Below, in pieces: positions 2,378 to 4,568 of a stretch of DNA of 20,329 bases; position 1 is the first letter of the stretch, and each line of letters starts with the position of its first letter. The stretch covers positions 1 through 20,329 of the forward strand of contig DAOVER010000053.1 in assembly GCA_030668875.1 (NCBI GenBank). The letters run 5' to 3'. A program made the position numbers and the translations under genes. A model generated the notes under the pieces. The model saw only the letters and a list, made by a program, of their open reading frames with translations. It was not told where the DNA came from and made no database searches. The DNA is from Candidatus Heimdallarchaeota archaeon. Lineage in GTDB: Archaea; Asgardarchaeota; Heimdallarchaeia; Heimdallarchaeales; Heimdallarchaeaceae.

Positions 2378-2581
2378 TTAAAACAGAGGAAGCATTGACA
2401 TAGATCCCTTTTCAGTTCCACCAAGATGACCATGAACACCTCCACCAGCTTGTATGATGACATTGTGTCCACCATGCTTAACCAAATTAGGAATCTTAGC
2501 AGGATATAATCCTCCAGATGCAGATGGGAAAGCCTATTTGAATTCATACATTGGGTTAAGCAAAGAATCCTTAAGTTCAAG
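2378..2581 (-). pseudogene. rbcL: C-terminal fragment of RuBisCO large subunit (form III-like), with an internal stop and truncated at both ends
   Basis: A minus-strand frame not in the ORF track reads LELKDSLLNPMYEFK*AFPSASGGLYPAKIPNLVKHGGHNVIIQAGGGVHGHLGGTEKGSMSMLPLF*. It matches the form III consensus K-x-x-FP-x-x-SGGLHP...IQAGGGVHGHPxG. SGG is at 2518-2510, GGGVHGH at 2446-2426, TAG at 2536-2534. Confidence 0.85.
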
Positions 2582-4568
2582 GACGTTTTTTCGTGTTTTT
2601 CAATTGTTTAGAGTAATGTTCACAATCAAAGCAATTATTCATTCTTTTTTCCAACTGACTATTAATTCCAAACTCTTCAGGTAAATCAGCCATGTATTTC
2701 TCAATTAAACTGACATGTTCCAAGCATCGTTTAGCAGTTTCGAGTATTTTAAGTTTCAAAAAGATCATCTTGTGCAATTCAGATATGTTTCTACAATCTT
2801 CTAGAAGTTTATTAGTAATTTTCAGTGCAATTTCATAGTTACCGAGATAACAATGACAAAGAACCTTATACTCTAAAATATCAAAAGTTACATCATTTAT
2901 TTGGTGGATACTATATTGGTCAAATACATTTAAACATTCTCTGTATAGTTTCTGCTCAAACAGACATTCTATTTTTTTATAGATTATTTCTTGAAAAAAT
3001 TCTTTTTCAAATTTAGATTCTGGATGTAGTAATAGTTTATCAATGATTTCAATGGCATTTCCAAATTTTTCTTCTGCAATATGATGTTTGTATTCTTCTA
3101 TTTGTTCTGAATACTCTGAGTATAAGGTTTTAGAAAAGCTGTCAATTGAATCGTACCTACACCTATAATATGGACATTCAACACATTTGTCAACAATATA
3201 TGATGAGCTATTTGAACTATAGAAAGCTAAATTTGAAATATATTCAAAAATAGGTGAAATGTCAATATCACTAAAGTTATCCTTTATATAGAGAGTATAA
3301 TAATCAGGAAACACTTCTCCAATCTTTTCGTTTTGATGTGGGGTTGCAGCTACAAGAATGCGGTATCTATAACGACTTTTATTTTGCTTGACTAGTTCAA
3401 TTGCTCTGGAGAAATTGGAATTCTTATTTGACAGTTTTGATTTTCCAATATAAATCAAAACAAAATCAATGTCGGAAGCAATTTCATCAAATCTATTCAG
3501 AATAGTGGAGTATTTGAAGTCATCATATCCAGCTCTAACTATAAATGCTTTATTTCTGTAAAAATAATTCTTGATAAAAAGCCCATCTTCCCTATCTATT
3601 TTTCCAAAAACAACCATTATTGAAAAGCGTTTTTCATACAAAGTTGTAGAAATTTTAGGAAATAAGTTATAATCCTTAAGAGCAAGAAATTTACAAATCT
3701 CCTCAAATCCCTCATCTAACTGTCTATATGACTTGTCAAAGTTATCATATCCAAGGACTATAATCTTTTTATCTTTATAATAACGTTCACATTCAATTTG
3801 TGTTATCTTTTGATTATCCAAAACTAAGAAACAGTAATTTTCCTCAAACGACATTTTATCAACAATAAACTGTATATCAGGATCACTGAAACTATGTCCT
3901 ATGAAAAGAATAGTATAATTTTTGAATAATTTCTGCAAAAAATCAATATAGTTTGGTGTTTGATGTAATAGATTCATGTAATCGATTTGACTTAGAACTA
4001 TAGTACTAGGATCTTCAATATCACCATGAATTTTAGCGACAAAAAACTGTTCTGGCACATTTGATTCTTTACTTATACTATCGCAAGCAAGAATTTTTGG
4101 AAAACGGTTATTTATTTCATAAAAAGCTTTTTCAATAAGATTATCATAATTCGTTGTGATTATTGCACGAAGGGGAATTAAAGAGATTAATTTATGCAAG
4201 TATGAAGGATGAATATCTTGTGGGGAAAAAACATTCTCAAGAAATTCCTTCAGTTCGTGTTTGCTTGTTTTTTCTAACAAATCTCCAGCGATAATAGGAA
4301 ATTTGCTTGAATCTTTCAATAAACTTTTTAGTTCTGAATAATCCTTTTCAGAATACTTCGCATTTTTGTATTGCCAATCAATAAAACAATCTAGGAACTC
4401 ATACCAATTTGGTAATGTCTTCCTGTTTTTTCCAAAACATTTCTTTGATATACCTGAACCAACCATCAAGATGCATTCTTTATTGATTATGTCCTCTAAT
4501 AGCTTTTTATAGTAGTATTGACTTTTCTCAACGTCATTTAATCTTACTTTGAGACTTCTGACTCTCAT
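2577..4568 (-). CDS. SIR2_2-family (NADase-like) protein with a central flavodoxin-like domain and C-terminal TPR repeats
   Basis: Motifs MVGSGIS, LPNW, IITTNYD (N140), KIHG (H181) and LFIGHSFSDPDI are the SIR2_2 signature. Residues ~314-448 alternate beta and alpha like TIR or receiver domains. Residues ~490-625 are TPR-like helices (FGNAIEIIDKLL, YRECLNVFDQY, YEIALKITNKLL). Confidence 0.85.
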   Translation of the reverse strand: MRVRSLKVRLNDVEKSQYYYKKLLEDIINKECILMVGSGISKKCFGKNRKTLPNWYEFLDCFIDWQYKNAKYSEKDYSELKSLLKDSSKFPIIAGDLLEKTSKHELKEFLENVFSPQDIHPSYLHKLISLIPLRAIITTNYDNLIEKAFYEINNRFPKILACDSISKESNVPEQFFVAKIHGDIEDPSTIVLSQIDYMNLLHQTPNYIDFLQKLFKNYTILFIGHSFSDPDIQFIVDKMSFEENYCFLVLDNQKITQIECERYYKDKKIIVLGYDNFDKSYRQLDEGFEEICKFLALKDYNLFPKISTTLYEKRFSIMVVFGKIDREDGLFIKNYFYRNKAFIVRAGYDDFKYSTILNRFDEIASDIDFVLIYIGKSKLSNKNSNFSRAIELVKQNKSRYRYRILVAATPHQNEKIGEVFPDYYTLYIKDNFSDIDISPIFEYISNLAFYSSNSSSYIVDKCVECPYYRCRYDSIDSFSKTLYSEYSEQIEEYKHHIAEEKFGNAIEIIDKLLLHPESKFEKEFFQEIIYKKIECLFEQKLYRECLNVFDQYSIHQINDVTFDILEYKVLCHCYLGNYEIALKITNKLLEDCRNISELHKMIFLKLKILETAKRCLEHVSLIEKYMADLPEEFGINSQLEKRMNNCFDCEHYSKQLKNTKKRP

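Follow-up and report, generated by a model that had tools for sequence, protein, structure and literature searches.

The window analysed here is a stretch of 20,329 nucleotides of contig DAOVER010000053.1 from a Candidatus Heimdallarchaeota archaeon, and it carries on its reverse strand a gene whose product begins with a domain of the SIR2_2 family (hereafter the SIR2 gene and the SIR2 protein). The coding sequence occupies positions 2577-4568 and specifies 663 amino acids plus a stop codon in an uninterrupted frame, with the ATG start codon at 4566-4568 and a GGAGG motif a few bases upstream of it on the coding strand. Three domains can be distinguished in the AlphaFold2 model of the full protein (pLDDT, the predicted local distance difference test, of 79.8). 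The first is a SIR2_2 domain of the type that cleaves nicotinamide adenine dinucleotide (NADase-type; residues 1 to about 300, positions 3669-4568), which is assigned on the basis of Pfam PF13289, hhalign and VIA. It is followed by a five-stranded alpha/beta domain of the flavodoxin-like class with a TIR-like fold (residues 312-450, positions 3219-3635) and then, after a low-confidence linker that is disordered in the model (residues 451-476, positions 3141-3218), by a C-terminal TPR-like alpha-solenoid (residues 477-663, positions 2580-3140). The layout of SIR2_2, flavodoxin-like and TPR domains that had been read from the sequence alone (the sequence-only reading) is thus borne out by AlphaFold2, Pfam and VIA, the second and third domains being recognised through their modelled structure only.

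The SIR2 gene lies between the remains of two other genes. Directly after its stop codon, and on the same strand, there is a relic of 51 codons of a RuBisCO large-subunit gene (2381-2533), which scores 31.7 bits with PF00016 (cut-off 30.1). On the other side of the SIR2 gene, the forward strand bears what is left of a class II aminoacyl-tRNA synthetase gene of the Asp/Asn/Lys type, an orphan tail from the 3' end (4751-4879; 31 bits with PF00152, cut-off 25), after which come stop codons and a T-rich tract. The RuBisCO relic is part of the variable segment that contains the SIR2 gene, and the synthetase tail marks the segment's opposite edge. The same RuBisCO relic is found 3' of the orthologue with 79% identity on an independent metagenome contig (L036, gene 7574-7738), so it seems to travel with the SIR2 gene, apparently as one cassette. 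Homology with the closest relative (G002) ends at about position 2284 and restarts at about 4712, with other genes in between in that relative, and a decayed copy of the synthetase-tail stretch is present in the closest relative (L027) upstream of the P0003 homologue. No convincing terminal repeats were found at the ends of the cassette; a 24-nt direct repeat of 79% identity (2354-2377 and 4913-4936) is probably a chance match in AT-rich DNA, the GC content around the gene being 29-30%. There are no tRNA genes in the window. With both relics scoring above the Pfam cut-offs and the SIR2 gene present in none of 23 genomes of the same genus, the earlier description of this site as a scarred accessory region holds.

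A gene enclosed by two relics in a rearranged spot could be the decaying or inactive passenger of a mobile element that is now dead, and have no function any more. We consider this highly improbable, however, as the frame is intact, the catalytic residues are all kept, and four orthologues (50-79% identity) agree with it in length and begin at the same Met, full length thus being retained down to 50% identity. Moreover, the ratio of nonsynonymous to synonymous substitution rates (dN/dS), calculated against the 79% orthologue, amounts to 0.17 for the whole gene and stays under 0.31 in every domain (0.09 in the SIR2 domain, 0.20 in the middle domain and 0.30 in the C-terminal domain). The SIR2 gene is therefore a real, selected gene and no remnant, with purifying selection acting on all three domains.

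Residues 135-270 of the protein match the Pfam SIR2_2 family with an E-value of 1.8e-27; the score is 96.6 bits, where 24.5 would suffice, and it comes to 98.1 bits when the genome is searched. The motifs lie where they had been claimed to lie, with TTNYD starting at residue 138 and KIHGD at residue 179, which places the two catalytic residues at N140 (codon 4149-4151) and H181 (codon 4026-4028); the Asp typical of the immune clade is D229 of the SFSDP motif (codon 3882-3884), and the NAD-binding loop GSGIS is represented by G37, G39 and S41. In an alignment of 17 family members the GSGIS loop, N140, D142, H181 and D229 are all invariant. When compared profile to profile with hhalign, the domain matches ThsA with a probability of 99.5% and an E-value of 2.5e-22, and the motifs ITTNYDNLIE, KIHGDIEDP and GHSFSDPDI line up with their ThsA counterparts.

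Structural comparison leads to the same group of proteins. For the SIR2 region, VIA returned KomC at Z 20.1 (251 of 264 residues, 24% identity), SeThsA at 18.8, FAM118B at 17.7 and Avs5 at 17.6, while Foldseek, given the whole model, placed DSR2 on top (E-value about 1e-11). Sequence search of the PDB gave E-values of 2e-23 for SeThsA, 8e-22 for FAM118B, 3e-21 for KomC and 1.5e-15 for DSR2, and the closest solved structures are immune or antiviral sirtuins throughout. It needs to be added that D194 of KomC, the equivalent of D229, is required for NADase activity, and that this Asp has been reported to be specific to immune sirtuins (PMC13454610). By its sequence the domain is a member of the antiviral SIR2_2 ('SIRim') group, to which the sequence-only reading had already assigned it, its full catalytic signature is intact, and NADase activity is predicted for it.

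The middle domain is more difficult to place. Modelled alone with an alignment of 25 sequences, residues 312-450 adopt a flavodoxin-like fold (pLDDT 85.6), and the genome profile search locates the domain at 3231-3653. An exhaustive structural search with VIA put TIR domains at the top, with Z of 11.3-11.9 and a root-mean-square deviation of about 3 A over about 130 residues (Cat1, RPS4, TIR-STING, AtTIR, IL-1RAcPb, RPP1, TIRAP and SARM1), and CheY-type receivers next at Z 10.5-10.9, which counts as a tie under VIA's own rule. Foldseek returned receivers first (E-value 2e-5, template modelling (TM) score about 0.55), and in the ESM Atlas clusters of TIR_2, ThsB_TIR and DUF4062 came first (TM score 0.63-0.70). 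In a structure search with the whole protein, TIR domains were the only matches to the middle region among the best 50, and the folds of DNPH1 and 2'-deoxyribosyltransferase were also among the structural matches of this domain. None of the 25 members has a Pfam match here, TIR families included, and the PDB yielded no match when it was searched with a profile of this domain. The earlier label of a TIR/receiver-like flavodoxin domain is accurate at the level of the fold according to VIA, Foldseek and the ESM Atlas. A SLOG identity was also considered and rejected at the level of sequence profiles, as hhalign gave a probability of 0.4% against the SLOG domain of ThsA.

In the alignment of the 25 middle domains D328, G329 and F432 are invariant, position 434 carries Asp or Glu in every member, and D436 and G375 are conserved in 92% and 80% of them, respectively. 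D328 and G329 form the start of helix A, which also holds conserved aromatic residues, G375 follows strand 3, and F432, D/E434 and D436 follow strand 5. No Glu is conserved anywhere in the alignment, the catalytic Glu of TIR domains included, and because of this the domain is not a catalytic TIR. Strand 3 is followed by Gly in 20 of the 25 sequences, where a receiver would have its phospho-acceptor Asp, so the domain is not a phospho-receiver either; nor does strand 1 end in two acidic residues. We lean towards a TIR-like rather than a receiver-like domain.

The C-terminal module consists of 11 helices (residues 477-660) in about five hairpins in the AlphaFold2 model. VIA matched it to the TPR of SRP72 (Z 15.0, 154 of 154 residues) and to Pins/LGN, kinesin light chain and MamA (Z 12-14), TPR proteins overall scoring Z 11-15, a range in which helical repeats may match one another through their common arrangement alone. 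Pfam gave sub-threshold matches to the TPR clan in all five orthologues and none above threshold (ANAPC3 at 20 bits against 27.2; TPR_2, TPR_8 and TPR_19 with E-values of 0.05-0.3). A TPR-like nature of this domain is thus supported by its modelled structure and not by its sequence.

The module is also rich in cysteines, which make up 11 of the final 209 residues of the protein. The five orthologues share seven invariant ones (C465, C535, C545, C592, C615 and the CxxC pair C646/C649). C465 belongs to a CxxC-aromatic motif in the linker (C462, C465, C470) and is the residue of this motif that all five long forms keep; a similar CxxC-KFF sequence is present in the tail of another family member, P0020. 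The invariant cysteines suggest a putative metal or redox site. Outside the orthologues the module could not be traced: a word-based search with residues 455-663 returned the gene itself and the 79% orthologue only, a profile search of the 223 collected proteins and six-frame translations of all loci returned the five orthologues only, and the ESM Atlas, when searched by features, yielded leads below 0.9 only (DUF6707, TPR).

The unit conserved throughout the family is a core of about 430 residues made up of the SIR2 and the middle domain. Among 1.84 billion representatives, a dozen or so clusters (50% identity level) cover residues 22-445 of the query and end there. The order SIR2, TIR-like, TPR-like is seen in the five orthologues only, and P0020 bears recognisable TPRs at its N-terminus rather than its C-terminus. 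Since core-only forms exist and the C-terminal module is confined to five orthologues, this module cannot be the family's only sensor; the core-only forms and the variant with N-terminal TPRs together show modular sensor swapping. The genes downstream of core-only forms were considered as detached TPR modules and rejected, being unrelated to one another and to the C-terminal profile. In the sequence-only reading, sensing was tentatively given to the TPRs and relaying to the middle domain. This division of labour is weakened by the conserved unit being the SIR2 and middle domains, usually without TPR.

The distribution of the family is sparse. The middle domain turned up in a single genome among 399 from the phylum, and a search of 185,579 species genomes gave two-domain matches in two only, Sulfuricurvum and a Verrucomicrobiota metagenome-assembled genome (MAG). 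Other loci of the family hold archaeal markers (histone, MCM, Cdc6 and Hef), and therefore, given the bacterial members, the family spans both prokaryotic domains. In this Asgard archaeon the SIR2 gene is a rare, patchily distributed accessory gene. A search for the middle domain fused to effectors other than SIR2 returned SIR2 proteins alone, the sensitivity of such a search being weak here.

No gene recurs as a neighbour in about ten loci of relatives, which indicates that the SIR2 gene stands alone; together with the lack of any P-loop or STAND family in Pfam and PADLOC matches, this agrees with the earlier view of a protein with neither a partner gene nor an NTPase. Several of the neighbourhoods belong to defence or mobile contexts. 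The core-only P0017 (L037, 2-7250) has hsdS on one side and hsdR on the other, within a type I restriction-modification operon; the same locus contains a 193-residue protein of no known family, a DUF5677 protein and a Bro-N protein, and resembles a small defence hotspot. P0008, an orthologue with 50% identity, adjoins a protein of 1416 residues without a Pfam family that matches PD-Lambda-4_A of PADLOC (E-value 1e-30) and a protein similar to nSTAND3/PDC-S73 (the pair lies at 11982-16232 and 17825-19843 of L003), and a HerA-like fragment of 276 residues lies there on the opposite strand; this locus looks like an archaeal defence island. In addition, P0013 is found between transposases and an AbiC-like gene, P0005 adjoins a HEPN protein, and P0012 is near an integrase. 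In the Sulfuricurvum MAG (L042, 9530-12457) the gene after the core-only homologue encodes a MutS-like protein that carries an HNH nuclease domain at its C-terminus.

We compared the SIR2 protein with known systems, and found that the matches end with its first domain. In PADLOC the hits to ThsA (2e-25), PDC-S25 (1e-13) and Dsr2 (2.6e-13; residues 19-231) cover the SIR2 part only, the ThsA models being matched at model positions 70-224 only. The NCBIfam equivalogs, which are about 1200 residues long and have a cut-off of 1400 bits, gave 44.8 bits for Dsr2 and 17.7 for Dsr1, again in the SIR2 part only, and PADLOC, NCBIfam and the PDB have no entry that matches beyond it. The sequence-only reading, in which the layout was not recognised as that of a named system, is in line with this result.

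By its design, SIR2 followed by TIR-like and TPR-like domains, the protein is closest to DSR2 and ThsA. DSR2 is likewise a single protein with SIR2, a middle domain and a C-terminal alpha-solenoid, so that the present protein might be described as a 'miniature DSR2', and the solenoid of DSR2 binds the phage tail-tube protein, upon which the NADase is released (PMC11850899). However, DSR2 has about 1005 residues against 663 here, the sequence likeness is limited to the SIR2 part, and here a TIR-like alpha/beta fold takes the middle position, followed by a short solenoid of the TPR-like, Cys-rich kind. ThsA, of type I Thoeris, shares with our protein an N-terminal SIR2_2 domain with TTNYD, KxHGD and SFSDP motifs, a single Rossmann-like regulatory domain after it and a core of about 430-480 residues. 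The differences are that the second domain of ThsA is SLOG/STALD (PF18185), which had no match in the 25 middle domains, that no thsB TIR gene occurs in the window or in the loci of relatives, and that the C-terminal TPR-like module is extra here.

The likeness to ThsA raises the possibility of an orphan effector activated by a signal, in which the TIR-like domain, standing in the place of SLOG, would bind a second messenger and free the SIR2 NADase. Such a messenger would be derived from a nucleotide and produced either by the virus or by an enzyme with a gene of its own. The core has the layout and size of ThsA, which is also the best match in PADLOC and in the PDB sequence search, and in the middle domain the invariant residues follow strands 1, 3 and 5, at the places where flavodoxin-like folds and those of TIR and SLOG have their ligand sites; the DNPH1 and 2'-deoxyribosyltransferase matches fit as well, and core-only members have no other candidate sensor. 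Against this stands the fact that no TIR, cyclase or other signal-generating gene adjoins any of about ten loci, that TIR_2 (PF13676) has no match in the genome, which is 92% complete, and that the profile comparison with SLOG of ThsA was null. Taken together, these observations make an orphan effector of this kind unlikely.

Other immune sirtuins are less similar in design. KomC of the Kongming system, which acts as a KomBC filament, has the closest solved SIR2 fold and shares the Asp required for NADase activity, but it is a SIR2-only protein of 264 residues controlled in trans by the dITP-binding KomB and by KomA, whereas in our protein the domains are fused in cis. Neither a komA deaminase nor a komB pyrophosphatase gene lies beside the SIR2 gene, the flanks consisting of the relics and of membrane proteins without a Pfam family. 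Avs5 (SIR2-STAND) and FAM118B are SIR2_2 immune sirtuins and structurally close (Z 17-18); however, Avs5 has a STAND NTPase after SIR2, in place of which there is here a 140-residue flavodoxin-like domain and a helical repeat, and FAM118B is a SIR2-only protein. SIR2-HerA differs by its adjacent, co-oriented HerA ATPase gene, which is absent from the window. Finally, the ESM Atlas contains uncharacterised clusters which show that SIR2_2 is repeatedly joined to TPR arrays or to TIR in one polypeptide, namely SIR2_2-TPR_11 in Bacteroidota and SIR2-STALD-ThsB_TIR in Bacillota, but these have recognisable Pfam TPR_11 or ThsB_TIR/STALD domains, whereas both corresponding domains here are below every Pfam threshold. 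Fusions of SIR2_2 to TIR or TPR have been noted as architectures in surveys (PMC12700824; bioRxiv 10.1101/2024.09.18.613514), and nothing was found in the literature under combined names such as SIR2-TIR or SIR2-TPR. The general idea of such a fusion is thus already known, and the family and the wiring described here are unnamed.

We propose that the SIR2 protein is probably a stand-alone, NAD+-consuming defence effector that works by abortive infection. In uninfected cells it would be held inactive; infection would switch it on, and hydrolysis of NAD+ would then arrest the cell or the virus, as is the case for ThsA, DSR2, Avs5 and KomBC. The TIR-like domain is probably the regulatory module of the whole family, given that it makes up the conserved core together with SIR2 and that core-only forms offer no alternative, and it would most likely control either self-assembly or the opening of the SIR2 active site. 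Activation upon formation of filaments or oligomers is indeed described for ThsA, Avs5, KomBC and FAM118B (PMC12700824). Homodimer prediction for residues 1-450 gave scores of 0.25, 0.43 and 0.00, which speaks neither for nor against self-assembly. The TIR-like domain could exert its control through protein contacts, or through a small ligand bound at the sheet edge formed by D328-G329, G375 and F432-x-[DE]434-x-D436.

In the Asgard subfamily the C-terminal TPR-like module might add a protein-binding surface, serving as a receptor for the trigger or as an autoinhibitory lid, and might be stabilised by a metal site of the invariant cysteines. Its dN/dS, the highest of the three domains, fits a sensor, yet it still reflects purifying selection. 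The more specific proposal is that the core of about 430 residues is an unnamed single-protein defence system of Asgard and other archaea and of bacteria, in which a TIR fold devoid of catalysis is the built-in switch of the SIR2 NADase, be it by sensing a ligand or by driving assembly, and to which the Asgard subfamily added a TPR-like receptor that is rich in Cys and binds metal; this version is put forward tentatively, and we hold it to be doubtful in its full detail.

Several points weigh against the proposed reading. The choice of TIR over receiver for the modelled middle domain hangs on Z differences below 1 and has no sequence family behind it, the assignment of TPR is likewise a matter of modelled structure, and which domain senses what is something we infer. 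Furthermore, the SIR2 gene has no defence genes as neighbours in the window, where housekeeping genes and genes for membrane or secreted proteins surround it, and two bacterial homologues are located among housekeeping genes (serA, glnE and the MutS-HNH gene).

The last two observations would fit a non-immune enzyme, such as an NAD+-dependent protein deacylase or ADP-ribosyltransferase, or a regulator of NAD homeostasis, for which the TPR-like domain would recruit a cellular client. Sirtuin folds can indeed catalyse deacylation and ADP-ribosylation. On the other hand, the SIR2_2 branch is devoid of the zinc module needed by canonical deacetylases (PMC12700824), and the present protein carries the Asp of immune NADases. 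The distribution is also extremely patchy, both within the genus and across domains of life, and the homologues are not consistently found in housekeeping neighbourhoods, which the sequence-only reading had named as grounds for abandoning an immune role: several are in defence or mobile contexts and two among housekeeping genes. A non-immune enzyme is thus rather improbable, and a defence effector is the reading that we prefer.

SIR2_2 sirtuins are a main NAD-depleting arm of prokaryotic immunity, and they have relatives in human innate immunity, FAM118B and SAMD9. How each SIR2_2 architecture is activated is an open question for the class, and a family of 430-660 residues with neither an NTPase nor a partner represents a compact case of it. 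If the proposed mechanism is true, TIR would act as a regulator of SIR2 and not as a producer of a signal, which would be a new wiring of the two main NAD-cleaving immune domains. As the regulator would be a TIR fold without the catalytic Glu, it could reveal the use of TIR as a scaffold or sensor in prokaryotes, as in the adaptors of animal Toll-like receptors. The occurrence in an Asgard archaeon adds to the immune modules available near the origin of eukaryotes. Should the protein turn out to be an ordinary NADase effector, it would still be another unnamed single-gene system for defence-finding tools.

The rest of the window contains archaeal information-processing genes and three large membrane or secreted proteins without a Pfam family, encoded at 1-2220 (-), 4984-6213 (+) and 6197-7285 (-). 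The membrane or secreted protein of 740 residues belongs to a multi-copy family with four matches in the genome and several in relatives, and the pair of 409 and 362 residues is syntenic with srp54 in the closest relative and lies elsewhere in two others. Upstream of srp54 there is also a gene for a 299-residue protein (7854-8753, +) with a weak match to DUF6299 only. A second short match to the synthetase tail pairs 4856-4880 with 7461-7485 (about 21 of 25 bases, each copy ending in a stop codon); this pair flanks two convergent membrane-protein genes, was unflagged by the repeat finder and may be due to chance.

No RNA datasets are listed as holding the SIR2 gene, and the DNA holding it occurs in marine-sediment metagenomes, possibly the source sample. 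The genome contains two actin homologues, which score 434-449 bits against the eukaryotic actin model, and genes of the ESCRT-II EAP30 type (C78:7349-8458, C16:2176-3288 and C91:44293-44964), and because of these genes the host is an Asgard archaeon by its gene content.

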